Assembly: GCA_964106645.2 (NCBI GenBank)
Contig: OZ067051.1
DNA length: 64,000 bases
DNA from: Podarcis pityusensis
Lineage: Eukaryota
Strand: one strand, 5' to 3'
A program made the translations under genes and the position numbers. The first letter of the stretch is position 1. Each line of letters opens with the position of its first letter. The notes beneath the pieces were generated by a model. That model did no database searches. It was given only the letters and a program-made list of their open reading frames with translations, and was not told the origin of the DNA. This document shows positions 3,901-46,600 of the stretch, in pieces.

Positions 3901-6900
3901 CCTTTGATAACCTTACACCCACCCTGAAATGAAGTCTTAAACATAATCCTATGATCTACAACTAGTTCCACCCAAAACTGGAGATCAACAGCCAAGGGCA
4001 GGACTGATAAGGGCCAAGACTTTACGGCAGGGATGGGGAACCTGTGGCCCTCACTATGCTGCTGGGATTCTTAACTCCTATCAGCACCAGCCAACACGTG
4101 CTGATGGGAGTTGTAGCCCAAAACATCTAGAGTTCACCAGGTTGGCAAAGCAATGCATTTTGCTAAACATAGTGAAAAAGGCAAGGAAAAAGCCTGCTCT
4201 GGAGGGGATGGGGTGGGTTTTTGTTTCTTTGTTCTTGTTCTTATCATGTATTTTGTGCTTTTATATTGTATTTTTATGTCGTGAACCACCTCAAGATCTG
4301 TGGATGAAGGACAGTATACAAATTTAATAAACAATACAAATAATCTAGTCAGAAGATGAGTGAGATATATGGGGGTGGGGGTGAGGCAGGATAGCAGGGA
4401 GTGCCCCATGGTGCAGTCCCCCTCTGGAAGCCAGCAGGCTCTGCTCACCTCCTGGGTCGATTCCTTGTCCTTTTGGAACTGGTGCCTCTCGTGGGTCAGC
4501 TTGTCTCCCAACTTCCTCTTGTTCTCCTGCTCCTCATTGAGCTGCATTGTGAGGTCTTCTATTTCATCTAGCAACTTCTGCTTCTCCTGAAAAAAAAACC
4601 AGGGAAATGAAACTGTAACCCTCCCAACACTCTCACCTCTTAAGTCCAGCAAGACCCCATGCCTTCCCACACTTGGAAAAGGGACACTGCAGGACTGATT
4701 GCTACCAAGCTCAGTTAATATCCCGCTATCCCAAAATACACACCATTGGTATCCAATTCAGGGCTGTTTGAGCTGACACACTGTCCACAAGCAGTTCATG
4801 ATGCTGAGAGCAGACTTGAGGAGGAGCTCACAACCAGCCATGTCAGAATTTGTGTTGGCAACTAAAAACATTGGCCTGCCACTAGAGGGCAGAATGACAA
4901 CAAGCAAGGAACATAAGAAACCTGCTTTAAGCAAGGCAAAGGGGTTAGAAATGTACAAGTGATCCAGACAAGGTAACACATGCTGTTAGTTGGGTTTTAT
5001 TATTATGGATGCTGCTTGAAACTCTCTCCTCATCAGCAAAAGTGGGAGACCCCTTGGCCAAACATGAATGTAATAGGGGGCCTTAGGCATATCTTCCCCT
5101 CAGCTTTGTCACCCCACCCGCATCTGTTAAGTGGAATAAAGTGACAATGCATGTTGCAAAAAAGCAATAAAAAAGAACTTCTTCTTCTATTAAATTTCTA
5201 GCTAGCGGCAAAGAAGTTGTTGAGATGAGTTCTTACCACAACTATCAGCTTGTCTTTTTCAACATTCTCTAAAATGTTGACCAGATATGCTTTACATGAT
5301 GGAATAACCACCAGTTTTCAATATCTAACCAAAACAATTATTTGCTACCAGTAACAATTAGTAACTAGAAGCCTAACTGAAGGTTGCAACTCAATATCCT
5401 AAGTATTCAACAATGCAGCAAAAATAGCCAAATTAGGCTTCCAAAAAGCAGGACAAAAATAGCCTCTTGGATTTAAAATCACAGAACAAATAAAACTGTA
5501 GATTTTTAGACAAGGAACCTTTCTTTTTTAAAAAATGTATCATGCTGACATTTGAAACAAGGTGTCAGAATGTCTGGTTTTGATACCAAGGGAAATCCAT
5601 CTGTGCAAAATCGCACATATTGCCCATTTTGTATAAAATCACAGAATTCATATACAATGTTAATTTCCCAGTTACAGTATATACAGGGTGAGTCCTTTAA
5701 AAGAGGACCCGTGGATACAGAGTACACATGTTCCACAGGGCCTCTTTTAAAAGACTCACCCTGTACTTGGATACAATTACCTGCTACAAAATTCCCTTTA
5801 ATTTCCTTTCCTCTTATCTGAAGGAGCTGAACACTTGTAGCCTGCATCCCAAAATAAAAGTCTCACTCACTCGCACTATGTTTTTTATCTTGGATTACAG
5901 GTGACCCACCCCTTGCCCCCGCAAAAATTAAGCCAAAATCTAATCACAACCCCTCCAAACTAGCCTTCCACTTGATCATATAAGAGAAAGTTGATGCAGT
6001 ATCATCTTAGGATAACCACTATAGCAAATCACAGGAGATACATCATACATTTCTATGCATATTTACTCCAAAGAAATCCCTGCTATATTCAGTGGGGTTT
6101 ACTACAAGGTAGGTGAACACAGGGATTGGAGTCTAAAAGTGACAGGTTTGAAGTTACAAGGCAGCCTAGGCTCATATTCAGAGAAAGGCTAGTATTTGAC
6201 CTCAGGGGGAGACAAATAATCAGAGATTTGCATAAGTGCATGGCCTAAAGCAGGTGTGCAGCATCTCTGGCAAGAGCAAACTGAGCACAGCTTGCTCTGA
6301 AGGCAAGGATGCTGAGTAACGGTGGGATAATTAATGCTGTGTCACTGAAACAGAGCCATATGCATTTTTCTTTACCGCTGAGAAATTCTGGTCCAGAGGA
6401 AAGCACACCACCCCTTTTATTTTTAAGGCACACAGAGGCATATTACAAAAATCTCTGCCCGGCAAAGGCACCTCACCTCCTCTAGCCTCTCAATATTGGC
6501 TCTTAGGCAAGGGACGCAGGACCGAAGTTCGCCGTTCTCATCATCCAGCTGCTGTATCCTGCAGTTCACAGAAACAAGCATAAGCTTGGAAATATACTGC
6601 CATCCCTGCAAGCAGGAGGCCTCTCTGCCTGGCCCTTGTGACTCTCCCCAGGCCACACCCCTCACTGGCCTTGGCTGGCCTCGTGTGCCCTTGAACCCTG
6701 ATCTTTCTTCTCGCTTGCCTGGATGGAGAAGAGAGACGTGTGTGTGAGTGCAAATAACTGTACAAAGCCTAAAATTTACATCGGTTGCTCCACCCACCTT
6801 TAGCCTGGTCCCAACCACCCCTGGCATGGGAACCCCTAGAAGGCTGTCCAAAGGGGAATGTAGCCCCACCAGCACCAACACGTGTTAACTATATGTTGTA

Positions 6901-21900: not shown

Positions 21901-24900
21901 TCCTTGCCAGAGCGAGAGCCAGATACCGAGATGAACTGCGAGTAAAGCCCATTCCCCCTGTCCCTGGGGGGGGGGGGGATTTGCAAGGATAATTACACTT
22001 AATCATCCTTGTTTTTCCTTCACCAACGATCTCCTGCTGTCATGGGGCCTGCCTCCATTAAAGCAGAGCAGAACTGGAAGCCGTGTGCTGGAGCAATCTT
22101 ATGACTGTTCACCAATACTGCTAACTGCACAGCTCTAATAGATTTCCCTCCGGCCAATGTTTACTGCAGCCTTTGCCAACCTGTGCCCTCCAGATGTTGC
22201 TGGACTACAACTCCTATCAGCTTCAACTTGCTTGGCATGCTGGCTAGGGCTGATAGGAGTTGTAGTCCAACTTTATTGAGGGCACCATATTGGGAAAGGT
22301 TGGTTTAGCGGCTGGCTCAAAGACATATAACCAGAGTTATCTGCAACAGTTATTTTCGACACCGCAACCAGTGGTGGTGGTGCTGAAGATAGGCTACGGA
22401 AGAAGCTTAGAGACAGGCACCAGCCAGTTGAGAAACGCTCAAAATGCAGCAACATGAGACACAGGTTCTGGCCATCTTACCTGGGAGAGAGGAAGGATGA
22501 ACTGCTGAAGCCACTTTCTCCGTTGCACAAGCTGTCTGAGAAGAGATCCACCTCATTCCCTTCCCCGTAGTCCTCAAAGTGCTCCTCCCCGCTAATTACG
22601 GTGACGATGGAGTGATTGTTAATGTCCGAGGTCAAAGGAAGGTCATGAGGGTGAGATCTGTTGGTGGAAAGGGAAGTCAGTATCTCAAGAGAAGGAATCA
22701 AGGAGTTCACCACACCCACCGCTTCCAACAAATGACGGCCACACCCCTGCAGAGAGCGGCATTGATGGAGTCATGCTCAAAACTGCTGCCTGCATTTTTT
22801 TGCTGCCAAAGGACCACAATATTATTATTTATGACATTTATCAGTCATTATGTAATCATTTATGTATTATTACATTTATCATGTGGCTTCACCACAATGG
22901 CATTGAGGATCCAAGCCTGAGGCTCCCTATTCTTGACCTGTATCATCTACAAATTGGCTTCCCATTATTTAAAGCCACCAAAGTCTGCACATGGCCATCA
23001 CCATCACTTCCTGCAGCAGTGAATCCCACAGTTACACCCGATGGCATAGAAATCCTTCCATTTTTCTTTCTTTCTTTTTTTTTAAAGATATTTATTAAAG
23101 TTTCAAGAAATACAAAAAAAAAAAATACAGAGTACAAAAAAAGAATAACGTTTTTAAAATATAACAAAAAAATAGAGAATAAAAAGGAAACATACAAAAT
23201 AAAACAGTTAAAAGGACATTGATTTTCCAAACCTATCTTCCCTACACTTATTTCCCCGGACCTCCTCATACCTCCCTTTTTTGTATTCCAGTTCAGTTTG
23301 TTAGTTCAGCAAATCCTTACCATTAAACTTTTACCCAATTGTTAACCTTTTTTCATATCTCTTAAAGCATTACAGCTAAAAACCTCTTAGTTTCTATCCA
23401 ACATCCTTCTAAGATTCCTTAATTTTGCAATATTTCTGTAAATAGTCTTTAAATTTCTTCCAGTCTTCTTTCACCGACTCTTCTCCCTGGTCTCGGATTC
23501 TGCCAGTCATTTCCGCCAGAAATCCTTCCATTTTTCTATCCCTAATCCCTTGGCAAGGGACGTGGGTGGCGCTGTGGTTTACCACAGAGCCTAGGACTTG
23601 CTGATCAGAAGGTCAGCGGTTCGAATCCCCGCGACGGAGTGAGCTCCCGTTGCTCGGTCCCTGCTCCTGCCAACCTAGCAGTTCGAAAGCACGTCAAAGT
23701 GCAAGTAGATAAATAGGTACCACTCCCGCGGGAAGGTAAACGGCGTTTCCGTGCGCTGCTCCGGTTCGCCAGAAGCGGCTTAGTCATGCTGGCCACATGA
23801 CCCGGAAGCTGTACGCCAGCTCCCTCGGCCGATAAAGCGAGATGAGCACCGCAACCCCAGAGTCAGCCACGACTGGACCTAATAGTCAGGGGTCCCTTTA
23901 CCTTTACATTACTATATATTTTGGAAAGTTGTTAGTTCATTCATTCACTACGCACTTCAGCACCTCTTAAGATATCATAATCAAATTTTGCATGATGATC
24001 CCCGAGATCAAAGAACAGGTTTCTGTCAGTGTTTGGATACGGTTGCACATCATTTTGAACCAAGGCGGCAGACTGAACTGATCAAAGCAACGGTGTTGAT
24101 TTTATGCTTTCTTAGCAATGCCTGAGCAATGCCACTTACGGGGTCTGCCAGTAGATAAATATTTTGGGCTGACTTGGTTAACAGGAGCAGCGGTGATTGC
24201 TGCAAGCTAAAAGGGAGCTTTTATGAACTTGGTGCCTTCCAGCTGCATTGGACTCATAGTCCCATCAGCCTCAGCCAGCAGAGTGCGAAATGCAGGGAGA
24301 GCCAGGGGCCTGCATGGAGTCTTCTGCAGATGGCAGAATGGCATCTGGCTGGCTATTATGGGAACAATGCTGGATTCAATGGACCTTTGGCCTGATGCAG
24401 CAGGACTCTTACATTGGATGCAATCCTCCCCTCTTCCTTGTTTTAGTTTGGCGACCAAACCAATCACTGCTCTGCCTTGGAGTACACCACTCAAGCTGTG
24501 CATTCACACAAGGCCAAGGCACGTGACACATGGCAGTGCTTACATGCATACACCCAAGGCTGCAAATCTGCACAGACCCAGCGTTGCAGAAGGTGCTGTG
24601 AATGCCCAAGCACAACGCAAATATAGCTGGGCCAAGCAAAACTTATGTCCTTTGTAGAAAGTGCATACAATAAGGCAGTGGCTGTATGGCAGGCAACCAA
24701 TCTAAGAGGCGGCTGAATCAACGGTAAAATATTTTCAGCTGCACAGCCAACCCACATATTAAAGTGTTGCGGCATTTAGGACCGCATAATCCTATTAAGG
24801 GCCCAGGAACACACTTTTAAGCAGTGTAACTTGTCAAAGGCACAGACGCCAGGCTTATTTCACAGATACCAGCATCCTGTAACAAAAAGCATGCCATTTG

Positions 24901-27114
24901 CACATGGGTGCACAGACTAGCAGACAGAGTCACAGATGCGAGTCCTCGTTTGCCATTTTAAACTAGCTGAGTTGTCACTGGACAGGTCTTGGGACGTGGT
25001 CCTGCAGCCTCACTTCCCTGACTGGAAAATGGGCCTAAGGGCCACCCACTTTGCAAGGTAAATGAGGTTGAATCTTTAGGTGAGCTGCAGGTCTTTCAGG
25101 ACTGAAGAACTTTAAAGACTTGGAAAGGCTCTTCAAATATAATTTCTAAATCAGAGTAAGAAGTGGCTTAAAAAAAAAGGACCAAACCCCTGCACCTCTG
25201 TGTGGATGAGAATTCGTGACACTGGTCCTTCCTTAATTCAAAAACAGGAAACCCAGAGTTATCAGCAATTCTAGGGATGCAAAAGTGTGTGCGCATTTTG
25301 TGTTAACAGACGGAACAGTCGTGCTATCATCCAGGAAACAGGAGGAGGAGTGAGGCTGTGTTCCTCGCTGCTGATGAAAAATTCCCCAAAGCAAAGGCAA
25401 TACAGAGATTCAGATTGAAGTACTCCAAAACAAAGTACACATGATGAAAAAGCTACAAGCACTGCCCAAGGATAATATACAATTATGCTACTTTTGGGAT
25501 TTGCTCCATTGTGTTTTAAGGTTTGTGTGTATCTGTGGGGTCTGGGTGTGTAATTGCATGCTAGTGTTATGAAAAGATTACAAAATTCTGGGAAGCAATC
25601 TTCAAAAGAAATAAGTAAAATCAGCAAAATCGGTCATCTAAACTGGGCTCACAACTTGGGTTTAATTTTGATATTTGAGGAAGAGAGTAAAAATAAATAC
25701 ACTACACAAGGAACTAGTGACCTCTCCTCTGGCAGCAGCGGTACCACTCTGTTGGTGGTGTCACTTCCAGTTGCTGCTCAGCTGGTGTTCACCTGTGACA
25801 GGGCCCTTTCAGCGGTGGTTCCCCATCTGTGGAGTGCCCTCCCTCATTACTGACTTTCAGAAGAAATTTTGAAACATTCCTGTTTAGCCTGTTTGATGGC
25901 TCAAAAATACTGGCCATGGTAAGTAAGCTTCTGGAAAGGGAGAGGAATGTGTCCCTATTTTGGTAAAGAGCCCTAACGCACTAAAAACAAGGGAAGTGCA
26001 TGAGCAGAAGGCGGCAAGATGGGAGTCAAATCTCTGGACATCAACAAGGAGAAGATCTTCTGACCACCAGCAAAACAGAAATAAGGAAGAGGGGATCAAG
26101 ACCCCAGTGCAGGAAGGAAATATTGGAGGAAAGTAGATATTAAAATCTAGTAAGCCCCAGTGAGGGAGGGAGGGGAAGAGCGAGAGAGAAGTGGTCAAGC
26201 CAATCTTACGGGAGGGAAATCCATGTCAAGATCAAGGCAAGGCCAGTTATGCAAAAGGCCCAATTTCTGCTTCTGTTCATATGTCTAATCAGTCAAATAG
26301 CTCATATTCAGGGAATTCTAGGAGAGTTCAAATTTGGACCATATATATTTACTATATCCAATGCCATCTTTCAGATCCTTGTCAACAAAATAAGGAAGTG
26401 CCCATCTGGATGAACTATAGTTTGTAACATAGAAAGGGGAGCATTTTTATCAACAGGTATATAGTCATACTCTAGGAATGACCACTAGCATATTAGAAAT
26501 AGATGGCACAGAGTGTCCATCAAGTTTTGGGTTGTTGTTGTTTTAAAAAAATTATTTAGTTTGTCCACACTAAAAAGTGTGTGGGGGGGGGGCATTCCAA
26601 GGCAGCTCTAAATAATTAAGACACGCTATTATAAAAAATTGTCTATTATTATTGTATGCTGCTGCACTGACAATTGCCCTGGGCTCTCGTGAGAAGCCAT
26701 CATAATAATCATTCCTGCCATTTTGACTGAGAGCAACATTCCCATAGATCAGTTAGGATCATGTGGATGGCAGCAAAAATAAGTGTGGGCTGGAAAGTGG
26801 AAATGTCAACCAATTTCAGCTGAATGGGAATGGTTATTAAAATGTCTGGAGCTGGCAGAAATGGATAAACTGCGCCGCTCCATCCAAGGGAGAGAAGGCA
26901 GACTGTGGAAGAGCCATCTGGTCGGGAGATGGACTTGCTTTGTTAAGCACTGGAATGCAAAATATGGAAATGAAAGGCTTGAAAGGAATCTGTTCCTGTA
27001 ATGATTGATGATGGCAATAATAATAATAAACGAAAAATCACCACCCATTCTTTTTCCTTCTAGTCCTCATACCACTGACTTCTTGCAGCAAATGGAGGGT
27101 GTCCAGGCTCATTC

Positions 27115-27148
<34 letters not shown>

Positions 27149-30100
27149 TGTGTCAGAGATCAAAAAACCCCTCCTCCTAGGACATACCATTCCTGGCTGG
27201 GCAATACAATGCCTACCCAGGAGCATATGACGCTGCCCCCCCCCCCCGCACTCAAGTTTTAGCTTCAACTTCTTTTCCACCCTAGCACATCTATTAATCC
27301 CACACATAACTCTTTATAAGACTTGCAGGAATGGCATTTTCCACCTTGCTTTGTAAAAAGCAGCAGTGATGTTAATTTGCTGGCTGCTTGACCTCGCGTC
27401 TCCAGTGCTTGTAAAGAAGCCACTCGAAAGCTACACACACAGAACCGCCACTATCCTGGTCAAACACAGCAACTCCACTTTTAAAAAGACAAATATCCCA
27501 CCCGCCCACCTCCAAAGAAAGGCATTTGTACCTACAGGCAGGAGAGTCCAATGCACTGAGCCATACTCCCAGGAGGCCGGGCAGGGCGAACGCAAGCTGG
27601 CATGCTTGCTAATTCTCTCCAGGAAAAAAAAAGGCCCTTGGTGGCCTCGCAGCTCAGAAGCTGATTACGGACTGAGGGTTAGCAACCACTGAGCCCAGCT
27701 CATTTCAGCAAAGAAAGCGGCAGGAGGCTAATCCCAGTTCCCCCTCTTAATCTGCAGGGCCTCTAACAGCAAAAACACTCTTTCAGCCCCGGATCACAAT
27801 CAGAACCTTCTCCAGCTCCTTGTGGACATATAGGAAGTCCTCCTTCAGGTGCTCCAAGTAGAAAGTGAACAGGGTTTATTGGGGGGTGGGGAAAAGAAGG
27901 TTTGCCTAACCCTAAACTAGTGCAAAGGCACAAATTAAGTCCTAAGTCCACTTAAAAAACAACAACACCCTGATAACCAAAATGGAAAACCTGAGGAGTC
28001 ATCCCTTCTCATGGATACATATGGTGGCTTATGCCCAACTAGTCGGACAGGGCTATAGTTAAGTCACAGCCTCAGTCAGCTCCTGCCAGAGAACCTGGAG
28101 AATCACTGCCAGCCAAAACCCCAGCTAGGGCTTGTAGCTTGGTGGTAGGGCACAGACTTTGTAGGAAATCATCGGTACAATTCCTGACAGCGTAGACATT
28201 CCGGGCCCAAGAAGGCCAGTGGTCTGACTTCACCAAGAAGGTTCCCCCCTGTGCCAGCCTTATCAGGACGAATGATTGCTATGATCAGGTTGAATCACAC
28301 TCTGGACACTTTTGAGAGAAGGTGGCAGGTGGATATATGAATGCACTTTTTTCTTTCACTGAACAGGTCAAGTTTAAAAAGGGGGGGGGGTACCAGCATG
28401 ACTGTATGACTGCCTTTTCAAAAACACACAAAATATCCCCAACCTCAGGAGTGGAAATTAGCATGCACTTCCCCAAAACTTCGACTGCACAAGACAAACC
28501 TTGCAGGTCAACACAGCAGGGGTGCTAACTTGAATAAAATACTGGGGGGAAGGTAAGCCCCGCCCCTCATAATCAATCACAGGACATGGTGCACACACAT
28601 CATTTGAATGCCAGTGCCCATCAACTTTGGGGGGCCTTGCTTCCTTAAATATTTTACTGAGGGGGTCCGAAGACCCCTTGGCCCCTAGGAGCTGGCTCCT
28701 ATGCAACACAGCTAGTTGCCAGTTTGATCCCCCATTCACCTTTCTAGCCCTTTAGTCTTAACACCACTGTCTTCGTTCCCCAGGAAAAAAGGGAAATTTC
28801 TTCCAGAAACCCACAGGCCTCATTTTTGCCTGTGCTTTAAGACCATTGCCTGAGGCCATGCGCAGTTGGCCTGCCCTTAAAATTTACTTACTTACTTACT
28901 TATTGCATTTATATACCACCTTTATCTTCCAAGGATCCTCTGCAACTCTGTAAGGTCGGTTAGTCTCAAAGATGGTGACTGGCCCAAGGTCACCGAATGA
29001 GCTTCATGGCTGAGTGGAGATTTGAACCCTGCTCTCCTAGGTCCTAGTTAGACTGGTGGGGACATGAGGCAAGGCCTGCTCAAGGACAGCCTCTACCAGA
29101 CAGAACTTCCTCAGTTGCTACATTTAAGAACGTGTTTTAATTGTTCACACTATTTCTCTGTTGTGGCTCTCAAAACTGTTTTTATACTGCCTGAATTGTA
29201 TCTCAACATAGTACCTTTTTTTTTTTTAATTTTAAAGTGCTATTATTAGATTACTGTATTTTTATAGTTCGTTTTCCGTTTGCCACCTTGGGCAGAGCTG
29301 ATCTAGAAAAGACACCTGATACAAATGTTTAATGAAATAAATGCAAATTCCGTAAACCAGGGATGAGAAGCCTATCAGCCTGCAGCCACCTGTGGGTCCA
29401 CAACCAATGGCAAAAACAGACAGAATAACGGAAGTACTTCTTCACGCAGCAGATATAAATGCATGGGAACTGGTTGCCATGAAGGTGTGATGATGGCAAG
29501 TGGCTTAGATAGCTTTAGAAAGGGGATTAGACACATCCAGGGAGGATAAGGCTATTAATGGCTACCAACAAGTTACAATGGCTCTACTGCATCCAGAATC
29601 GGGTGAGCCCTGAATATCAGATGCTAAGAAGCAACGTCGGGAGACAACGGCCGGCCACTGCAGGAAACAGATTGCTTAGCTTGATGGGCTGCTGATCAGA
29701 TCCAGCAAGGCTCCCCTTGGCCCAATTCACATGCCATGGTAAAACATTGTCCTGGCTCTCCATGCCAGATGCAGAACTCACACACATCACTGTGGCTGGA
29801 AGTTTTAAAAGGTTTTCATGATCACTTAGCCAAGAATAAACATAGGTTTTAGCACTGCGGCTGGTTTGGAGCAAACCCAACCACAATCAGTGCAATGGAC
29901 GCAACCGCGAAGCCAAGGATAGAGGGCTGTTTCTTCCTAGCATTGGTAGAGAGAGAAGAGAAACAGGTGTGATTGGCTCTCACACAGTAAACCGTGGTTT
30001 TATGGCTTACTGTGATGCATGAATGCAGCCCTTACATTTTGCAGAGGGGAGAAATGGCCACTTACCCCTTTGTTTTGTGCTTCCTAAGGCTGGTCTGATA

Positions 30101-30431
30101 AGAAACTAAGTTTCCAAATCTCTGCTTTAAGTTCCCGGAGAGGCTCCTGCTGTCCTACCCAACACCAAGATAAAGCACCTACCCGTTCTCAGGCTCCTCG
30201 GTGGGGTCCGTGAACTCCGAGTGCACAGTGGAATCGATTGCGCTATCCGTTTCTACTTCATCATGCATCTCGTGATGCACCAGGGTGCTGGTGTCTTCGT
30301 CCGTGAATGTCTCACACTCGCTATAGGTGCTCTCTGAGCCCATGTACGCACTGTCTGTCACTTCATTTGCCTGTTGCAGAGAAGAGGAGAAAAAGCAAGT
30401 TAAGAACAGAGAGACAGAGAGACAGAGAGAC

Positions 30432-30482
<51 letters not shown>

Positions 30483-33400
30483 ATGACAACTCCAAATCAC
30501 AACTATGTTTTCTTTCTGCGGAAAGCATTTTCTGGAGGTAGAACAACTGCTTTGAATGCAGAAGGCTCCAGGTTCAATCCCTGGCGTCTCCATGTGGGGT
30601 CAGAAGAGGCTCCCGCTGAAGCTCTGGAGAACCGCTGCCAGTCAGTGTTGTCAATACTGAGCTAGACAGACCAATAATCTGACTCAGTATTGGGCAGCTT
30701 CCTATGTTCCTTGAGCAGGAATAAAAAGAGAGGGGTGGAGTACTGAATGGAGTAGGCCATTTTGAGGAGCATATTAACATACCTCCTTCACTGAAGGTAC
30801 ACATGCACTCTTTCTGTTGCATACTTCTTCATGAACTCTCCCATTACAATGGCCTCATCTGCACACAACACAAAGCCCAACTATGGCTTAGCATGAAAGA
30901 GGAAGTGCACTGGTGCACAGGGAGAAAATTTTGGCCACTGCGCTCCTCCCCAACTACCGGGAGCAAAGCCATGGTTTGGCTTAATGGAAGTGATGGGTGG
31001 CACCTGTTGGGACTGGTAGGGTGGAAGGCAGGGAGCCCAACAGTAGGGGGAGCCAGAGGCATGGACTGGCAGAGCCAACTAGTTCTAGGTTTGTTCCCAT
31101 CCTCTTCCTCCTTGCTGAGTTCTAAAAGGGCAACCCCCGGACTGAGGAGGAAGGTGACAAGCAGGGCCACCCCTTGGGCTAGTTGTATATAAGACTATGG
31201 GCAGGTGGAGGCCAGCTGAGAATCAGGCCTTCCTTTCCCTTCAATTCCTCAACTGTCTTTCTCCCAACTGACAGTTAAATCCCAACTGACAAGAACCTCC
31301 AGCCAATCAGGTTATGCCACCATCCAGACCAATCAGAATGCATTGATCCAGGCCCCACCTAACATTCTCAAAGCAATCACCTATCTCCCTCTCCTCTCAG
31401 AACTTGGTCACTAAGCACCACTGCCAACCAGGCTTGTAACATCATTAACAGTACAAGGCCTTGGGTTTTCAGAGTCACAGAATATTTCTTCTCCCATTTA
31501 AAACACAAACGCAAACAGACATATCTATAGCCAGCCCTACCATTTGTCTACATTCTACTATGAACAAACCACGAGGTGCGACCAAGGTTTGTTCTTGGCT
31601 TACTACACATGGTTTGTTTGGATCAAAACAAACCACAAGACTGGATTCAGACTTAAACCAGATAAATGAAGCAGGTAACTAAAATATCTGTGATCTGTGT
31701 CCTGCCATTAGGAGTGGTCCCAGGGCAGGATCCAGAAGACATGTGATGCGGCTAATCTACTCAGGCTAAGTAGATCTGATCTGGTCAGTGCCTGGGAGAC
31801 ACAGCCTGGGAACCCCCAATGTAACAGTGCCTTGAGTTCCACAGCAGAAGCACAGGTGGACAGACATGAACTAAATCTACTATATATTTTGGAAGGCTGT
31901 TTGTTCACTGTGTAGCTGGACACCTCTTAAGACATCTTATCCAAATTTTTGCGCAATGGGTCTTGAGATCAAGGAGCAGGTTTTCATCTATGTTTGGATA
32001 CAACTAGATGCCCATTTTAATCAAGATCACCAACAGAACATTTCAAAACTGCACTGCTTTTATTGTTTCTTAGAATTCCTGAACAACGTTGGGTACAACG
32101 CTCTAGTAAATAAAAACAAAAGCCTTCAGAGTGTATTGTTTTTCGAGCCATTAAGGACAGACCCTTTCAACAAGCAACCAAGAAATCCAGGTTACACATA
32201 TCCATTTGTGTTACAACACCTTTTTTTTTTAAGGCAGTTATTTCTGGTGAACAGACGTCAGAATAATCTCTGGGAGAATACCGCTTATTCCCTTCTACTC
32301 CAAAGAGAATGCAAAAGCAGGCAAATTACTCCTGAAGGTCATCTTGACTATTAAATTTGCACACCAGGGGAAAACAAATAAATACACACCCATATCAAGT
32401 TCAGAGGAGCTTTTTCAAAAACACTGCAAAGTTCTGTATCAAGAAAGGTTAGCAAAGGAGACACCATGTGCTTAGCAGCCAGATTTTGCAAGCTTTCATG
32501 ACACTCGCTTAAATGCCAAAGGCACACATAAGACAGGTAAACAGAGGATCACTCCAGAATTGTATTTCTAGATTTTCAGCATATGATCCTGAAGCCTTGA
32601 GCTGAAGTGTGAAAACTGATCACAGTCCCCTTAACAGAGTAACATTAAACAATTTTTTAAAGAACTGAAACCCTCTGCCAGCTTGCTTAACCATAGCCCC
32701 CGTCTGCCCCAAAAGCCAGTTCAAAACCGACAGCTCTTGTCAATGCTCATGGTTTTTTTAGATGTTAGTCTTATATCATACCTTTTTTTCACAGAACTTA
32801 CGGTAAAGGTTCTCTCTGTTTTTCCCTCATGACCACCCTGAGGGATAGGACAGATTCCAGGCTTCCTCAACCTCAGCCCTCCAGATGTTCTTGGCCTACA
32901 ACTCCCATGATCCTTAGCTAGCAGGACCAGTGGTCAGGGATGATGGGAATTGTAGTCTCAAAACATCTGGAGGGCCGAGATACTAGCCCCAAGTCAGAAG
33001 GCTGAGGTAGGTTTCCCCAGTTCCAGTTCAATACTCTAATCCAGGCATCCCCAACCTGCGGCCCTCTGCCTACAACTCCTATGATCCCTAGCTAACAGGA
33101 CCAGTGGTCAGGGATGATGGGAATTGTAGTCCAAAACATCTGGAAGGCCGAAGGTTGGGGATGCCTGCTCTAATCAATACATTCATCCGTTTGCAACCCC
33201 ACATTCAAGGGCAGCCCCACAGAGGGAGGAATGCAGTAGCTCAGCATTCATTTGACGAAGGCGTGGGTGACTGTTTCTTGGTCCCCTCCATGGGGCAGAA
33301 AAGGGGGAACTAAGTGGCTGAGGTTGGTGGGAGTTGTAGTCCAAATATCTGGAGGGCACCAGGTTGGCAAAAGCTGGTTTAAAGTCGCAGGTATACACCA

Positions 33401-36400
33401 GTGTTTAGTGTGCATTGCACCACTGAGTGGCTTCCACCCCTCAACAGGCAAAGTAGAGAGAGTTCTAAGTTTCAGCCACTGCTTTGGAGCAACGGCAGAT
33501 ATAGCCTTGCCTGGTCATTTCTGTTTCCTCCCCTCCAATTAAATATTAAACCCCCAGCCAAGATGCCAGGGAGACAGGCTCACATTCCTAACCTAGATAT
33601 CCATTTACCAAAAAGCAAAGCCTTCAAAAAACTGCTGCTGCAGCAGCAAGAGCAAAAAAAAAAAAAAGTTAAACTGTCACTTTGGGGGGGGGGAATCCAC
33701 CTTGCCGTCTGCACCTCGCCCCCATTTTACAGCCTCAGGAAGGGCAGCTGGTTTCCAGGGCAGCTGTTGAAAGACCTTTGCAGATTCCTCGGCTAAGGAA
33801 GTTTGTTTTTTGTGTTACCAGCAGGCCTGACCTCAGCACATTCTACAGATAAATCTTTTCTGTGAATTCCCCGTGCAACGTTGAACAAATACTCAATTTG
33901 AAAGGGAGGGGGGAGAGAAAGAAGTGGCAAACCGAGCCTTGAAAACAAAAGCACATATAAACAGTAAAAAATAAGATAAAGGCTCAGTCCAAGTCTGTAC
34001 ATTTTGCATTCGTGGTAATATCAAATACAGTAGTAACTCTTGCATTCTCTGCAAAAACAACCTGCTAACATTATAGCAGAGGTTTCTCGCCCATTCTGTC
34101 AGCCAGTCTTTTTTAAATTATTATTTCAACGTATGGTGAAAACATTAAAGAAAATTGTCCAGTAGCACCTTAGAGACCACCTAAGTTTGTTCTGGGTGTA
34201 AGCTTTCGTGTGCATGCACACTTCTTCAGATACCTGTACCTGTGCAAGTCTCTTTGTGAGGTCGATAAGAAAAGGTATCTGAAGAAGTGGGCAAGCACAC
34301 GAAAGCTTACACTCAGAACAAACTTAGTTGGTCTTTAAGGTGCAACTGGACCATTTTCTTATTTTTTTATTTATTTCGACTGCGTCAGACCAACACTGCT
34401 GGCTACCTACCTGAATCTTCACCATAGGTTGCGAGGAAACAAACAACACCACACTGTAGTTACAAAAAGTTATATTCACAATCACAATGTATTTTTTATT
34501 GCATTGTGGACAAGCTTAAGAGCAGCTATCAAGGATGCCTGCCCCAGTTACCCCACAGGTTCCATTCAATGCAATAGCTCAGGTCCGGTACCCTGGCCTG
34601 TTATGTTTGCTCACACATCCTAAAGTACTGTAGAGCCCCATCTTAGTCTTGGAGCACCTGTTCTTCATGCAGGTTCAATCTCTGGCATCTCTGGGTGGGG
34701 CTAAGAGAGATCCATGCCTGAAACCTTAAACAGCTGCAGGTCAGTATGTAGACCAAGGGTGGCTTATCCTGCAAGCCACATACAGATGCTTAAACATGCG
34801 CTTGTAGCTCAGTGCTAGAGCAGCTGTTATAGATGCAAAAGGCCCCAGGTTTGATCCCCACCATCTCCAGGTAGGGCTGGGACTGTCCACCACCTGAAAC
34901 CTCATGGAGCCACTGCCGGCCAGTGTTGACAATACTGAGCTAGATGAACCAGTGGTTTGGGCTCAGTATAAGGCAGCTTCCTATGTTCCCTTATAAGCCT
35001 ATTCTTTCCATACACACCCCAACCTTAACAGCAGGTGGAATTGCCTTCAGGAGACATCATTACCACTAGCTCTGATAAGATCTCCATCCTCCCCTAATTG
35101 AAAAGGACCCCAGAGTCTCTGGGAAGAACAGCCAAAGGATTGGTGGTAGCAAGGGAAAGAGTGGGGGAAGCATATATAAAAAAACAACTTTCTTATGGAT
35201 ACTGGAAACGTCTGCACTTAACGCTTGCAGAGTAATCAAACGAAGGAGGAGATTTCATATGCACACCTTCACCATGAGTTCCCGAGGTGGGGTACAGCCA
35301 TAAAAATATTACAGTATTAAATGCAGTGAAAACAAAACTACAGCCAAGAGAATACGGTGGGTCCTATATAGGTAAAGATAAATATCAGATATCGTAGGTA
35401 AGAGGTACACAACAAAAACAACATAATGAAGGTGGCAGATGCGAGGAGGGGATCCCTCAGCTTAGGGGAGGCCACAGAGAATGCCCTCTTCCTGGCTGCT
35501 GCCCCCTCAAACTTCTGAGGACTGTAGAGCTGTAAGGTGCAAACGACTGCTGACCAAAACTTCAATAAAGAATGGGGGGAAATTATAATTTACTTGAGAG
35601 ACCACTGTAAGCAGATGAAAACACTAGCAGGATTGCAATAACACTTGTAATGCAGAAGATTCTATGGATAAACTAGAGACACATAAAATTTGGATGATGA
35701 AATAATATGCAGTTGAAAAGGTTTATACAGTAATAGGATTCATAGAGGGGAAGGTGGAAAATCTAGAGATTCAGAGCAATCTCTAAATATGGATATGTAT
35801 TTTGCATTGTTATAACTCTACACCTGTAAAATCAAATAAAATTTTTTTAAAAAAAAACCTTGGTTGATTGCTGAATGGAATATTTCATGCAAGCACCTTC
35901 CTCTATTTCCCAAACTCCGCAGGATCCACAGTGCGTTAATTCTGCAACCATTTGAAGAAATGATTTACATTGGTTGCTTGTGCTGACCTCCCACAGAACC
36001 GGTTTCTCTGTTGCTCAATAGATCCAAACCCTTTTCCTTCCTGGATGAGCTCAACGATACTGGGAGAGCAAAAACCACCACAAAAGTACACCTTCTTTTA
36101 AAACATGCACACACACACACATACAAACAAACTCACAGGTGGAGAACGCCACGTCTTAGCAGGCTCAGGGAAAACGCTGACTAGGTATGGCTCCCTACTG
36201 ATGCCGAAGTGTTATGGGCGGACAGATGGACAGGCAAGTACCCCTCCCGACACAGGCTCAACTGCCTCAAAACCACCTGAGGGGCTGAGCTAGAGCATTC
36301 CAGAGAGGACCGGAATCTGGACCATGTTAGCACCTCAGATTGGCACCGCTTTCCTCTTAAAGCCGAGGGATAATCTTTTACCTGAAGGCAGGCAAAGTTC

Positions 36401-39400
36401 CTTCTCTGAAAAGCGAAAGTCCAACTCTGGATACGCTTACTTAGAAACACACACACCTCCTGGCTTTCTGCTGGGGTTGGGGAGGAGGCAAGAAGCGATC
36501 AGGAAGTACAAACTGGGCTGGTTTGAACAAACTGGCCTCAGCTCTCTCAACAGAGTTCCTTTTGTTCTTGAACTCCCCAGATAACAGCCTACAGGCTAAT
36601 CTCTCCCCCCCGCCAGCCCACCCCCATTTCCCTGCCGGTGTTTCACTGGGAAGGCTCAATTCTTGCAACTAAATGCAGACCTCAGCCACCTTTGGACAAA
36701 GAGAGCTAAGTTTTAAACTTGTGTCAAAGGAACACACCCTTTTCTAGCTGAGGAACATTTCTCTCTCCCTATACGAAAAGGGAGGGGGGTGTCACCCAGA
36801 GAAACCGATTGCCAAGGGATTAAAGGTAAAGGTAAAGGGGACCCCTGACCATTAGGTCCAGTTGCAGACAACTCTGGGGTTGCGGCACTCATCTCGCTTT
36901 ATCGGCCGAGGGAGCCAGCGTACAGCTTCCGGGTCATGTGGCCAGCATGACTAAGCCACTTCTGGCGAACCAGAGCAGCGCACGGAACCGTTTACTTCCT
37001 GCCGGAGCGGTACCTATTTATCTACTTGCACTTTGACGTACTTTCGAACTGCTAGGTTGGCAGGAGCAGGGACTGAGCAACGGTAGCTCACCCCGTCGCA
37101 GGGATTCGAACCGCCAACCTTCTGATCGGCAAGTCCTAGACTCTGTGGTTTAACCCACAGCACCACCCGCATCCCTTGCCAAGGGATTAGGGATAGAAAA
37201 ATGGAAGGATTTCTATGCCATCGGGTGTAACTGTGGGATTCACTGCTGCAGGAAGTGATGGTGATGGCCTTGTACAGAGTTTGGTGGCTTTAAATAATGG
37301 GAAGCCAATTAGTAGATGATACAGGTCAAGAATAGGGAACCTCAGGCTTGGGGGCTTCTCCATCTGCTCCCCCACCAGTTGTCTCCATCCTTACTTCACA
37401 CCTTCCTTGAGTATTTTTGCCTGGCTAGACTTTGTAATTGAACTCTGATAATGCTTCTTGCTTGCCTGGATCATAGAACTGTAGAGTTGGAAAGGGACCC
37501 TAGGGGTCATCTAGTCCAACCCCCCTGCAATGCAGGAATCTCAACTCAAGCATGCATGACAGATGGTCATGCAATCTCTGCATAAAAACCTCCAAGGAAG
37601 GAGAGTCCACCACCTCTTGAGGGAGTCTGTTCCACTGTCCAACAGTTCTTACCGTCAGAAAGTGCTTCCTGGTGTTTAGTCGGAATCTCCTTTCTTGTAT
37701 CTTGAAGCCACTGGTTTGAGTCCCATCCTCCGGAGCCGGAGAAAACAAGCTTGCTCCTTCCATGTAACAGCCCTTAAGATATTTGAATATGGCTATCGTA
37801 TCTCTTCTCAATCTCCTCTTCTCCAACCTAAACATACCCAGCTCCCTCAACTGTTCCGCATAAGGCTTGGTTTCCGGATCCTTTATCATCTTGCTTGCCC
37901 TTGTTTGCACACCTTCCAGCTTGTCAATACAGTGGTACCTCGGCTTAAGAACTTAATTCGTTCTGGAGGTCCGTTCTTAACCTGAAACTGTTCTTAACCT
38001 GAGGTACCACTTTAGCTAATGAGGCCACTGCGCCACCGCCGCATGATTTCTGTTCTCATCCTGAAGCAAAGTTCTTAACCTGAGGTACTATTTCTGGGTA
38101 AGCGGAGTCTGTAATCTGAAGTGTCTGTAACCTGAGGTACCACTGTATCCTCCTTAAATTGTGGTGCCCAGAATGGAGGATAGAGGGATTTGTGTGGGTG
38201 TGTGCAGAAACAAGCCTACTGTACAAAGGTAAAATCAGCATCCATGGCCCCACCCAATTTTGTCTCTGGCCCCACCCACCACGGCCATGTGGCCCCCAGG
38301 AGGTTCCTTTGAGGGAAATGCAGCCCTCTGGCTGAAAAAAGCTTTGCCACTCCTCTTATAGGTCTATCTCCCGAAGCTAGACATGGTTGCTAAGCTGAGC
38401 CACCATATCTAGAGGCACTCTACCTCAGAGTAACAGATGCTGGGGATACAGAAAAGCTCCCAGAGGTATCTGGTTGGCCATTACAGTGGATGCTCGGGTT
38501 GCAAACGTGATCCATGAGGGAGGCACATTCGCAACCTGCAGTGTTAGCAACCCGCAGCGCTGCGTCTGTGCATGCGTGGGTTGCGATTCGGCACTTCTGC
38601 TCATGCGCAAAGCACGATTCAGCACTTCTGCGCATGCGCAACGGCCGAAACCCAGAAGTAACCCGTTCTGGTACTTCCAGGTTTTGGCGGGTCCGTAACC
38701 CAAAAAAACACAACCTGAAGCATCTGTAACCCGAGGTATGACTGTACTGCCATATGTGATGGGGTTAATCAAGGACAGCCCCACCCAGATATCTAGGGCG
38801 TAAGCTTGTTTATCTAGAAGTAATTGGTGATGCTACAGTAGGTCCAAGTTTTATGGGGCTGTGTGCAACTGCAGATTTCACACGTGATTCGAAAAAAGCA
38901 CATGACTAATGTGCATGGTTGAGCTCTCTCTCTCGCTCTCGCTCTCCCTCCCCCCACAAAAAATGTTTTCACAGAAAGTACGCTGTGCCCCAGAGGAAGC
39001 AATGTCCAAGCTTAAGGAGATAAAGGGATTCAGTCAACTTCACCCACCTGACATTCCTCACATCACTGAGCACACAGGAACATAGTCCTTAAGTAATCAT
39101 TGGCAAAAGGCAACAAAAGACAAGTTGCGATTAGAAGGCGGCTCTCCTTCAGCCCCAGAATCAGCAGAGCTTCTCTAAATCAAGACTGACAGGTAGACGA
39201 GCCAAGACTCCATATATCCAGTGCAGTGGCTGGACTAGTTCATGAGAGACAAAAGCACTATGGCTGACGGAAAATGTCGACAATGGTAGTGTCCACCATG
39301 GTAGCGGAAAGGGTCTGGTTCTGCCCAGGCATTTGAAGAAACTAAAAAAAACTGTGATTTTTAAATTGATAATGTGATTTATGAGTTTTGGGGCTAGATA

Positions 39401-40672: not shown

Positions 40673-43600
40673 AGGAAGAGGTTTGTTTATTTATTTTCAT
40701 TTATTCTTTAAGATGAGAAATGCATGCTCTCTTATGGTTTTGGCACCTTGCTTTGGTGTGTGTGGGGGGGAATAACAAATGATCTACGCCTGGCTAAAGG
40801 AACAAAATATAAAGACTCTTTTGTGGCACATTGGCACTGTTTTATTGTTTGGAGATTAAATACAAAAGCGTCTCCTGTAAGCATTCTGGCTGCTATGAAT
40901 ATTGTGAACGTAAATTTGGATACTTTCGGAAAGACTGCACCATCAGATTGATGTTTTTGATTTCTTTTTTTTATTTCACTTTACACTCTCATTGTCCTGT
41001 CAACAAAATGAAAAGGGGATTATTCTGAACTATTAAACAGTTATTAATAAAAATGTATTTTTAAAAAATTAAAAGGGGGAGGTAGAATAAAAAGAAAGGG
41101 CCTCATCTCCTGTGGCAACCGCCGACTCCCAAGGAGCAATGGCCACACTAAAGTTGCATCACCGCCACTAGGCCTCACTTCAACGTTGTCTTTGGGCAGA
41201 GGCAGCTTCCAGGCAAGCTCTGATCTTGTAACTGGAGAGTCTGAGGGACAGGAGAGAACCTCTGTTTGAACCTTCTCAAGTGTCATTAGGAGAAAACAAA
41301 GCCAGATGGATTTAGCTGCCAGTCACTCTGCCTGACCGTGGGATGTATTTGCAGAGGCGGCAAGATCCGAGTAGGGATGAAAGGGGGGGAGAGTAGAGCC
41401 ATATGACCTGCATGCAGTTTTTAAATGCCTAAGGGCATGACCTCAGGGAAATAAATTGGGCTTGAAAATATTTAGTTGTCACGCTGCCCCCACCCCCACC
41501 CCCATTTGCCGGTTACACTGTTCTTTTGAATGGAGTGGAAAGCTCACAATTTGCAGCAACCCAGTAGCCACAGGCTTCAACATCCCTGCACCCTGATCTG
41601 CCCCAGGCAAATGACTAGCATGAAACAGAGCACTCATGTCATCAAGACAGGCTGACAGCCATATACTTCAATCCTCCTGCAAAGCTTCCTTAATGCGTAA
41701 CCAAAGGAAGAGGTGGGGAAAATCCATGTTGGAGACAAGGCCTGACACTGGATAAGGTGAGGCAAATAAAGATTTGAACTTCCCCAGTCTTTCATGCTTG
41801 CAATAGGTAAAGGTAAAGGGACCCCTGACCATTAGGTCTAGTTGTGACCAACTCTGGGGTTGTGGCACTCTTCTCGCTTTATTGGCCGAGGGAGCTGGCG
41901 TACAGCTTCTGGGTCATGTGGCCAGCCGACTAAGCCGCTTCTGGCGAACCAGAGCAGCGCACGGAAACACCGTTTACCTTCCCGCCGGAGCGGTACCTAT
42001 TTATCTACTTGCATTTTGACGTGCTTTCGAACTGCTAGGTTGGCAGGAGCAGGGACCGAGCAACGGGAGCTCACCCCGTCGCGGGGATTCGAACTGCCGA
42101 CCTTCTGATCGGCAAGTCCTAGGCTCTGTGGTTTAACCCACAGCGCCACCCGTGTCCCTTGCAATACATGCTTGCAATACTCACCCCTGAACCTGCAGAC
42201 TAGAAGAAGGAGAATTAAACAAATGCTACACCAAGAAATCAAGGCTACCAGTCCCTGCCCACTTATCAAGAAAAGCAAAATGGGCCATGCTAACTAATTT
42301 CAAGCAGTGGGCATATAATTCTGGTCTCCATCCAGTCCTGCACACAGACGGATGCTTCTTTGCAAAAGCAAGCATTCTTAAGAAAATAAATGTGGCAGGA
42401 GTGGAGGGCGGTGGGTGTGAGAGATCCTGTAAACGGTGGCGCATGGCACTGCCACCTTGCAAGGCTGCCAAGAAAGCCCTCACAGATTAAGAATACCACA
42501 TTTCCTCATCAGCTGGTGAATACTTTTTTAAAGTCCTCACGACACTTCATCAGCATTTTAGGGCATTTCATTTTTGCAAAGCAATTTTCTGCAATATAAT
42601 GCATTTTTTTAAAAAAACCAACAACGTTATTTTCACAAACATATGCACACTTTGGTATATACATTGTTGCACAGATAACTTGGCTGGAGACCTGCATTGC
42701 AAAATTTGGAAAGGAGCAAATTTTGAAGGATAAAAGGCAAGTTTGCCTTTAAACTGAATGGCATTTTCCCCCATCCCTAGCTGAGACCCATAACCATGTG
42801 GCCTGGTTTAAGGTGGGTCACCACAGCAGCACTCCCAACCAGGTAACAAATTGACGAATTAAGCAACGGGGTCCCCAAATACATGTCTGGATTTAAGGCC
42901 AGTCTTCTGGGCCTGAAAAGGCTGGAGACAGCTGCTGTAAAGACTCAAACCCTGTACAGGCCTTAGTCACTAGGGGCAAGCAAAAGGCTTTGTGTTCAGA
43001 CACTCACCTCAAATGTGACAAAGTCATCAAACTCATCGGGACAGGCAGATGGTGGTTCATCATGGGCATATCCCATAGTGCAGAGCTGGCTGTCAGGAAC
43101 TGCTGAAAGGGGGTGAGAACACACACACACACACACCAAATTATTATTACAGGAGGGAAAGGCAGGTTTTTTTATTTAAAAAAGCAACATTGAGGGTTGG
43201 AATGCTCCTCCAGTGAAGTCTCAAGCAGCAGGAGAAGCAGCAGGAGATTAATGCAAAGGACATTCTGTAAGCCCAAAGTTTCCACCCACAGAGGAGGGTG
43301 TCCACCAGGGGTGCCCGCTTAAATAAAATATTGGGGGGTTCCAGATAACCCTACCCTGCATAATCAATCACATGACGTGGCACACACAAACCATTTGAAT
43401 GGGAATTCCCTTCAACTCAGGGGGGTAGCCCCCTCAATTATTTTAGGGGGGACGAAAGGACCTTGGCCCCTAGGCTCCTCTGGTGCCTGCTGTGCGTCTC
43501 TCCTTGACTTTATCTCCGCTTCCAGTGGGGAAAACCATGTTGCATCTCTAGGTGAGGTGAGCTGCAATGTTCAATCCCTGCTGATACAGAGATAGAGCAG

Positions 43601-46600
43601 AATCGCCTCCCTCTGAGAGGCAGCATGCAAGCTATTATGAGATAATTGCTTGAAAATATCGTTTGCTTCTCGATGGAGTAAAATAAATTTTATTTAATTG
43701 AAAGTACGTAAAAAGTTGTATTAAACACTAGGCATACTCAGGAGTAGAAATCTGTTGGAGCCAATGCAAAAATAATATTCCAGCAAGAGATATAAATTGT
43801 CCCAAATATTAAAAGAAAAAGACACATATAGAATCATGGCACACCTGAAGCTGAAAAGGGGCTTTGCTTCTTGAACAAATGTTGCTTTAACACAGCATTC
43901 CTCAACTTAGTCGTGAAAAACACCTGGAGGGCACCCCGACACCTTCAACTCTCAAGATACCAAAATCCAAGAGATATTGATTACCGTAGGCACACAAATA
44001 CAGAATTTACAATGCATGTTCCAAGAGGAGGTCAAAAAGGCCATTTAAGATTTTGGTCAGATTCCAAAAGCTGAGCTCAGGAAAATCTCTTTTTTTTAAA
44101 AAAAAAATATTTGCATATAAGTTTAAAGAAACAAATTTTAAGTTTTAAAATCTTGTGGCTATATGTTAAAAGCAACAAGTTAGTGGTCATATCTAACCAT
44201 ACCCAGAAATCTAACATATGACCCAGAAATCTAACACAGTTGGAAGTGTGGTGTGGTGATGTTTTGGGGATGCAAATTCAAATTAGACTATAGAAAATTA
44301 TAATTTTATGTCAAAAATAAGAAAATGGCAAAATTTCACAGTGTGGTCAAATGAAACTGAAAATGCATTTGTTAAATATAATTAACTTTGAAAAGGTAAG
44401 AAAATAGTTATAACGGAGGATAAAAAATATTAATAATCTACTATTAGAGTGGGCATAGAGAATGTATCAGTTTGCTGCTACCACACTGACAGATAAAAAC
44501 ATAGGTAAATGGCGTTTCCATGCGCTCTGGCACTCGTCACGGTGTTCCATTGCTCCAGAAGCGGTTTAGTCATGCTGGTTACACGACCTGGAAAGCTGTC
44601 AACAGTATTTTGCTTGAGAATCTTCCCATCCCCCCCCAACCCCATGAAATCATTTTTCTACCTATACTTGGCGCTTCCCTACCCTGGGATTACTAATTTG
44701 TTCATGCAATAGTTTTCCTCCGCAAAAGCAACGCAAGTAAAAAAGTTCCTAGAGGAAAAACCATTTTTACATTAGTACAAAGTTACTCTTCGCCATGTTA
44801 GAAACATAGGAAGCTGTCTTGCACCTCCTCAGACCTAATCTCAGTACAGTGGTACCTCAGGTTACGAACTTAATTCATTCTGGAGGTTCATTCTTAACCT
44901 GAAACTGTTCTTAACCTGAGGTACCACTTTAGCTAATGGGGCCTCCCTCTGCCACCGCCACTGCCGCGCTATTTCTGTTCTCATCCCGAAGTAAAGTTCT
45001 TAACCTGAGGTACTATTTCTGGGTTAGTGGAGTCCGTAACCTGAAGCGTCTGTAACCCGAGGTACCACTGTATTGCCTACACCAGGCTTCCTCAACCTCG
45101 GCCCTCCAGATGTTTTGAGACTACAATTCCCCTCATCCCTGACCACTGGTCCTGCTAGCTAGGGATCATGGGAGTTGTAGGCCAAAAACTTCTGGAGGGC
45201 CAAGGCTGAGGAAACCTGGCCTACATTGACTGGCAGCGGTTCTCCAGGGTTTCAGGCAGGGGGGCATTCTCAGCCCTACCCTGAAGATTTCAAGGAGTGA
45301 AACTGAGTTCCCCCATCCCTGAGCTACAGTCCTTCCGCTCTTCCCTTACTGCGACACTGTCCCCTATAATATGAAAGTGGAAAAGGCTATTCTATCAGGA
45401 TCAGTCCACTACAGCTGAAGTCTAGCACATGGCAGCCTGATAAATTAGATCTCTTAAACCAGGGTCTGCGGCTGCCAAGGGCAATACCGTAATTCATGCT
45501 GAGAAACGAGCTTGGGTCCCGTCTTCAGCCAGTAGCGCAGCCTGAGCAGCAAGGAGTATAGCTGGCTCATCGTTTCAACACACAAGCCGTGCTTCTCAAA
45601 CGGCGGTTTTACGGCTGCTGATTCTGCACATTGCAGCCAGTCTGGTTTGCAACAATTCCCCTTTCGAGGCTTTGTAAATTTCTGCTCTTCTGAAATCACA
45701 TCCAGGAGGAGGCCATTATATCCTGGAAAACTGATCTTAAATACTTTTTATTAAAGATTTTCATCAACTACAAAAGAACATGCAACGTCACTCCCTTTTT
45801 TTGTTCAGATTATAAAGTCTTTGGGTTACATTCAATGCAAGTCAATATGGCACCCAGAGGGAAGGGGAGAGAGGAGAGGGCGAGTGATAAATTTGCACAT
45901 TATTTTTTCATTTCCCCAAATTGGTATATGGGTAAGGTTTTTATGTCGACGTCATTTGGGTAGGTTCTCTTTCTATACATTTGTTGGTTTATGTGGGCAG
46001 TGAGAGAAGGTTGAGGGGGGCCTGGGGCGTGGTTGTTTGCCTTTGATTGACCGCCATGAGATTCATTTGCATGTGTGGAAGGGAGAAATGGATTCTTGGG
46101 TCAAGTTAGCCATACTGATCTGTATGCTGCTGATACATCCCTGCTATCCTTATTGTCATTTTGAGCTGTGTGTGTAATAAAGAGGAGCCGAAGATCAAAC
46201 CTATCCATTCTGAAGGAAATCAGCCCTGAGTGCTCACTGGAAGGACAGATCTTGAAGCTGAGGCTCCAATACTTTGGCCACCTCATGAGAAGAGAAGACT
46301 CCCTGGAAAAGACCCTGATGTTGGGAAAGATTGAGGGCACAAGGAGAAGGGGACAACAGAGAACGAGATGGCTGGACAGTGTTCTTGAAGCTACTAACAT
46401 GAGTTTGACCAAACTGCAGGAGGCAGTGGAAGACAGGAGTGCCTGGTGTGCTCTGGTCCATGGGGTCAAGAAGAGTCGGACACGACTAAACGACTAAACA
46501 ACATCATCATCATCATACCAGGGTGAAGGTGGCTCCATGTCAGTTTCTCTGTTTTATTTGTCCCCATGTCAGTTTCAATCTATCGGTTAGCTTTTCTATT

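Follow-up and report, generated by a model that had tools for sequence, protein, structure and literature searches.

The 64,000-nucleotide stretch of Podarcis pityusensis contig OZ067051.1 (assembly GCA_964106645.2) analysed here, called the window below, holds three copies of the Sauria SINE (short interspersed element; Squam1), which we name A, B and C (Table 1). SINEs A and B lie in adjacent introns of the gene RAB11FIP3, with one coding exon between them. We read the segment 22911-23907, which ends in SINE A, as a composite that arose when a single insertion driven by Bov-B changed its template to the nearby SINE B, and give this reading a probability of roughly 0.6. SINE B is the donor: its 5' flank was copied, from B to A and in inverted orientation, next to a SINE whose 3' end belongs to another subtype and which lacks a target site duplication (TSD); the copy was later interrupted by an L1 insertion.

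Self-BLAST of the window pairs 22911-23070 with 37351-37192 at 96.25% identity, and 23518-23910 with 37214-36823 at 90.7%. A preliminary description of this DNA had proposed an inverted flank duplication here, and the alignment bears it out: once the later LINE (long interspersed element) insert is removed, 22911-23556 is the reverse complement of 37176-37351, 176 against 176 bp, with exactly 5 mismatches. A BLAST search of the 176-bp flank against the genome, which ignores very common words, returned 3 matches from 3 candidates, all at the A and B places, supporting the local event proposed there. SINE B keeps its 14-bp TSD, of which SINE A retains only the 5' copy, also as described. Because B has this TSD and an old MITE-like repeat (miniature inverted-repeat transposable element) continues at B and is cut at A, the copying ran from B to A; the same two observations rule out SINE A as the source, and an inversion with staggered breaks is ruled out by the fact that B retains both native flanks. 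The lack of a TSD around SINE A likewise held, the best local match being no better than shuffles (269/300), and a search for a distant TSD found none. The left flank of A matched only itself. The captured flank resembles an old CR1 end, but no paralog was found.

SINE A is 94-95% identical to dispersed copies and about 91% identical to B, and each of the two is missing from the other's best 40 matches. Consensus positions 312 and 315 are linked subtype markers (G+A in 88 and T+G in 28 of 132 copies scored, against 2 with TA and 2 with GG); SINE A carries G/A (GCCA type) and SINE B carries T/G (TCCG type). The preliminary description had named different subfamilies as an outcome that would refute its reading, and at the 3' end A and B do fall in different subfamilies. 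The base it had noticed as shared by A and B and absent from C (ggccGataaag versus ggccAataaag) is real: it is 277G, the one derived base that A and B share relative to the consensus of 72 other copies. It is rare genome-wide (196 versus 32,723 exact motif matches, 0.6%); as a subfamily marker it was rejected, the 30 of 196 carriers that were typed being GTCA (13), GCCA (12), TCCG (1) and other (4). No CpG decay is common to A and B, and only 1 of B's ~13 derived changes in positions 1-277 is present in A. Judged by distance ranks, B comes 26th of 43 in closeness to A over all sites and 4th of 43 with CpG masked. The CpG-masked distance between the two SINEs (8/283) equals the flank divergence (5/176), and the capture would therefore date to about when the SINEs themselves inserted. 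Given the shared flank and junction together with the discordant 312/315 markers, SINE A is best described as a chimera and not as a whole copy of B. The switch would lie at consensus 278-311, a placement that rests on 277G.

Similar structures recur elsewhere in the genome. Under a relaxed TSD test, 22 of 117 copies, A among them, had no TSD; 19 of the other 21 were followed for ~20 kb on each side (1.25 Mb screened), two with 8-9-bp TSD-like repeats being left out. Locally copied unique DNA was found at 4 of these 19. Three of the four share one build, with a TSD around the whole: a full SINE, local DNA and a SINE 3' piece of 38-94 nt, the donors lying 5-64 kb off (Table 1). The C5 composite is inside a RhoGEF/SH3 gene on the minus strand, with exons on both sides, and the copied strand is sense. 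At C1 the copied strand is sense to a gene with one LDLa exon beyond the acceptor, on one side only; this exon came from an exon-candidate scan, a Pfam search of 148 open reading frames (ORFs) having given no host gene at that locus. At C8:7078310 a GCCA 3' piece is joined to a TCCG full SINE that shares 8 derived states with the donor-side SINE; the copy ends at the donor SINE's first base and reads through a T5 run, and its copied strand is sense to the gene of mitochondrial SerRS (seryl-tRNA synthetase), whose last coding exon lies 0.55-1.1 kb before it. The switch points share 5 letters with the SINE at C5 and 4 at C1. A TSD around the whole composite argues for a single insertion event, in which, on what is understood of target-primed reverse transcription, Bov-B would abandon the SINE RNA once 38-94 nt had been copied and continue on sequence from the neighbourhood. 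The inferred 3' piece of A, about 44-77 nt, falls in the range of these composites. At the fourth locus, C8:5001519, there is neither 3' fragment nor TSD, and the SINE carries its neighbour's 3' flank; this case could be a later repair. Matches at C18:8091922 and C18:6010605 turned out to be repeats, not captures.

Three composites among 185 distinct full-length copies, a non-random sample, put their frequency probably on the order of 1-2%. One SINE 3' motif has 39,106 exact matches in the genome, and among the first 100 of these listed, none had a same-strand neighbour within 1 kb (scored by eye, both parts requiring an exact 18-mer), so composites should make up at most a few percent.

Sauria SINE copies end in (ACCTTT)n tails, and the SINE 3' end shows a short match to the end of an RTE-type fragment at ~46470-46500, which we take to be Bov-B. 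A TSD is present in 91 of 112 full-length copies (control 108/1500). Insertions of this SINE are described as having TSDs that start with T and a T-stretch ~10 nt upstream (PMC13295347, in the part accessible to us). We recovered this signature from 56 sites (T-rich at -12 to -10, modal TSD of 13 bp), and B fits it. The tail of SINE A sits at the 5' end of an older repeat, presumably Helitron-like, and the left flank ends in ATC, the three letters that precede that point in paralogs of the repeat. Since the left-flank ATC and the right flank together rebuild the start of the old repeat, little target DNA would have been lost at A; the site rebuilt in this way from paralogs points to a join that was nearly blunt, with a single base shared.

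The captured flank contains the later LINE insert that the preliminary description had placed there, 450 bp with a 20-bp TSD at 23048-23067 and 23518-23537. The insert has at least 39 dispersed copies at 93-98% identity among the matches listed, and a longer paralog matches L1 ORF2 (E 5e-35). In all 4 of the 4 runs compared, which carry four organism labels, X19 possibly being the source species itself, contigs span the left junction of A, and the donor-side boundary is spanned in X3 and X8; contig records over A's right junction (23887-23991) reach ~21 letters into the SINE and were not counted as bridging. A 945-bp contig of run X20, assigned to the A site by offset, passes through the whole flank into the SINE without the L1, and X10 and X8 also indicate a flank without it, with shorter overlaps. 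The duplication therefore predates these lineages and the L1 insertion came later. The insert is lineage-restricted at this site and could be used as a presence/absence marker among related organisms. Flank haplotypes in X8 and X3 were considered as a sign of gene conversion between A and B and rejected, because contig assembly collapses near-identical copies; missing contig cover at 37361-37382 in X10 and X20 was not used as a sign of donor-flank loss, since a contig gap proves nothing.

In the sequence of events that we favour, reverse transcriptase (RT) would have started at what is now 23907, priming at the (ACCTTT)n tail of an RNA from a GCCA-type SINE. After about 45-75 nt the complementary DNA (cDNA) would have shifted to B without loss of register, somewhere in consensus 278-311, and the rest of B's 5' part would have been copied with 176 nt of its flank, before the cDNA joined host DNA without a TSD. 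The preliminary description had Bov-B RT prime on B's own tail within host pre-mRNA and copy B with its flank. Its local setting, its source in B, the sense orientation and the likely involvement of an RT stand; own-tail priming and the copying of the whole of B are not supported, A and B differing at 312/315. As to when the capture at A took place, flank and SINE are equally diverged, the TSD-bounded analogues show capture during insertion at three other loci, and no empty site at A was found in contigs of 5 of 23 runs.

As for the template, 4 of 4 cases (A, C5, C1 and C8:7078310; p=1/16) have a copied strand in the sense orientation of their host gene, and the donor lies upstream of the acceptor at A, C5 and C1, not at C8:7078310. 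That only 4-5 letters are shared at the switches is easier to reconcile with a single-stranded template than with strand invasion. If the favoured reading holds, we lean slightly toward nascent RAB11FIP3 pre-mRNA over B's DNA, entered by strand invasion, as the template. More tentatively, and as something short of an even bet, we suggest that the Bov-B RT inserting Sauria SINEs recurrently leaves the SINE RNA after 40-95 nt and copies nascent local host transcripts before finishing.

Several observations weigh against a single Bov-B-driven insertion with a template switch. SINE A has no TSD, unlike the three TSD-bounded composites and most full-length copies (91/112), and no empty site turned up in the runs above. 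Its rebuilt target site stands at the 4th percentile of true Bov-B sites and has no upstream T-stretch, so that some target DNA must have gone missing or else Bov-B did not make the break. The close rank of B in CpG-masked distance (4/43) also counts against this reading, and a rare non-CpG state is shared by 56 of 945 random pairs, so 277G alone is a weak link between the two copies. The sense orientation reaches only p=1/16, with two host assignments one-sided, and becomes unremarkable at 4 of 5 once C8:5001519 is added, whose donor is antisense to a NUMB-domain host gene and fits DNA-level repair.

Some of these points would be met if A had first been an ordinary GCCA-type insertion and a later break near its 5' end had been repaired by one-sided strand invasion of B, removing A's 5' TSD. 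Such a history would explain the missing TSD and the absent T-rich signature upstream of the cut, has a parallel in the 3'-side capture at C8:5001519 (different subtypes, no TSD) and leads to the same end product as the favoured reading. We nevertheless think it unlikely: with 1 of ~13 derived B changes shared in positions 1-277, the repair would have to follow soon after both insertions, and the left-flank ATC and right flank rebuild the old repeat's start, which suggests that little was lost (estimated chance of such a match ~1 in 13). A 5' transduction, in which B's own tail served for priming and RT copied B in full with 176 nt, draws support from B being sense to the host gene and upstream of A, from the A-B homology ending in the tail, and from the shared 277G and the CpG-masked rank of B; none of the three CpGs of B at 310-317 is intact any longer, a possible mark of an older tract of conversion. 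However, because A and B differ at 312/315, it needs a later gene conversion in A or B confined to 278-353, which a template switch does not, and the TSD-bounded composites mix subtypes by switching without conversion. Since A also has no TSD, we regard this account as improbable. A pure repair duplication of B and its flank into a break by synthesis-dependent strand annealing (SDSA), with no RT, agrees with the missing TSD, the near-blunt site, the local donor and the poor endonuclease-site score, and matches the repair-mediated duplications of PMC2671141 as described in the accessible text. It is very unlikely in our view, given that the copy ends exactly in the 15-bp tail, that 312/315 again call for conversion, and that 14 kb exceeds the <5-kb class of that paper. 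A misassembly or a dispersed composite family can be practically discounted: the flank occurs in two genome places only, 5 mismatches and the L1 insert tell the copies apart, the left junction is bridged in 4/4 runs and the donor-side boundary in X3 and X8, and no support for either was found.

RAB11FIP3 lies on the minus strand, its exons matching lacertid proteins at mostly 94-100% identity (tblastn). By exon position SINE B is on the same strand within an intron, in agreement with the preliminary description, and SINE A is in the next intron downstream, antisense to the gene. Judging from exon order, a RAB11FIP3 transcript would span B's flank and element in sense. On its own the A/B locus is a duplication within introns that shows no sign of being functional. 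Its arms, 22911-23907 and 36823-37351, form a 530-bp inverted repeat spanning a coding exon, and recombination between them would invert the exon.

Table 1. Coordinates of the A/B locus, its surroundings and the composites found at other loci
Feature	Position	Strand	Remarks
RAB11FIP3 coding exon ~250 bp beyond the copy's left end	22483..22662	-	approximate tblastn bounds
Captured copy of B's 5' flank, first part	22911..23067	+	ends in first L1 TSD copy, 23048-23067; self-BLAST and alignment
Young L1-clade LINE 3' end, 450 bp, 20-bp TSD	23068..23517	-	absent from matching X20 contig; absence indicated in X10, X8
Second L1 TSD copy and remainder of captured flank	23518..23556	+	ends in 5' copy of B's 14-bp TSD
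SINE A, Sauria SINE of full length, putatively chimeric	23557..23907	+	277G at 23831; 312G/315A at 23866/23869; no TSD
SINE A, putative switch point	between 23832 and 23865	+	277G versus 312/315 states
Older repeat adjoining A's tail	23910..24152	+	paralogs with ATC...CTAGT-type ends; its start possibly at 22909-22911
RAB11FIP3 coding exon between the copies	30182..30373	-	approximate tblastn bounds
3' copy of B's 14-bp TSD	36809..36822	-	5' copy at 37176-37189
SINE B, donor, TCCG subtype (312T/315G), original insertion	36823..37175	-	sense to RAB11FIP3
Donor 5' flank, 176 bp	37176..37351	-	matches copy at A
Old MITE-like repeat	37327..37471	+	extends beyond 37351 at B; cut after ~25 bp in copy
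SINE C, independent insertion, GTCA subtype	41805..42158	-	own TSD
C5 composite	C5:93870003-93870618; donor 93875657-93875829		full SINE + 173 bp local intron, 5.5 kb away + SINE 262-355; 12-bp TSD, 2 mismatches
C1 composite	C1:100232589-100233236; donor ~100243881-100244138		full SINE + ~260 bp, 11 kb away, inverted + SINE 318-355; 12-bp TSD
C8 composite	C8:7078310-7078917; donor 7014028-7014572		SINE + ~190-bp 3' flank, 64 kb away + SINE piece from 292; 9-bp TSD
Fourth case	C8:5001519-5002013 and 4979841-4980347		inverted pair of SINEs 21 kb apart, subtypes differing, with 145 bp of 3' flank in common

The TSD of SINE C is 13 bp long, followed by an 8-bp repeat of its start just before the 5' end (42159-42179). 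Palindromic self-matches, probably MITEs, occur in the window at 34148-34360 (213 bp, 84%), 5682-5765, 45082-45219, 55117-55257 and 57405-57540. Direct local duplicates with no SINE at their ends were seen at C14:18204425-18204832 and 18209508-18209915 (408 bp, 100%), C14:15985701-15986180 and 15989275-15989754 (480 bp, 99%), and C2:10008388-10009600 and 10013362-10014581 (1.2 kb, 97%).

The recurrent class matters more than the single locus: hundreds of cases are possible genome-wide, and how they are oriented and placed with respect to host genes would decide the template. If host transcripts are indeed copied in this way, each lacertid genome would hold from hundreds up to a couple of thousand local duplications tagged by a SINE, and local duplication would have an RNA-templated route in the germline, on which SINE subtype markers are swapped as well. 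Such captures could shift small exons or elements of introns within their neighbourhood, give rise to inverted repeats on either side of an exon, as at A/B, and confound SINE subfamily trees and presence/absence markers. Known cases that bear on whether DNA or RNA is the local template in retrotransposon chimeras are few (6 Alu and 22 L1, in the accessible parts of the sources cited below). No paper describing local capture by Bov-B or by Sauria SINEs turned up in a literature consisting mostly of open-access main texts, nor Sauria SINE composites of this kind in the accessible parts of PMC2912911, PMC4666360, PMC10670947 and PMC13295347.

In the 5' transductions of SVA and L1 elements, an upstream promoter yields one continuous RNA, and the upstream flank travels with the element and lands anywhere with a TSD. 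Unlike these, the event at A is local, has no TSD, and its 3' end does not come from the donor. Repair-mediated duplications are local, two-copy and ~160 bp long, usually without a TSD, and include 20 chimeric two-donor acceptors (Pace et al. 2009, PMC2671141, as far as the accessible text goes). The A/B flank is alike in having exactly two copies on the same chromosome; those duplications, however, span <5 kb and have no retro-tails, whereas here the distance is 14 kb, a SINE tail forms the right end and the related cases are bounded by full TSDs. Tripartite chimeric retroelements, which arise from double template jumps in a fungus and in mammals (Gogvadze et al. 2007, PMC2104539, accessible part), resemble the composites in combining three templates in one TSD-bounded, LINE-driven insert, but their parts are abundant transcripts, while here the middle part is unique sequence near the insertion.

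The closest likenesses are with two other systems. The 22 L1 templated insertions described in tumours typically carry <250 bp of non-element DNA, for which an SDSA-like cDNA pairing with nearby DNA has been proposed (bioRxiv 10.1101/2024.08.27.596794, Zumalave et al., in the portion available); as would be the case here, genomic non-element DNA is copied into a retrotransposon during integration. They are somatic, with templates said to lie within 15 bp of the site, whereas our cases concern a Bov-B-mobilised SINE in the germline; their donors are 5-64 kb off, a second SINE often completes them, and the copied strand is sense to host genes. Recombination with an Alu already in the genome completed 6 of 226 de novo Alu inserts (Wagstaff et al. 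2012, PMC3415434, accessible part); these too have a 5' part from a resident copy, a new 3' part and no direct repeat. They often cause deletions or rearrangements, while at A/B the donor is intact with its TSD and unique flank was duplicated. By this comparison, SINE A would work like the L1 templated insertions and the recombination-completed Alu chimeras.

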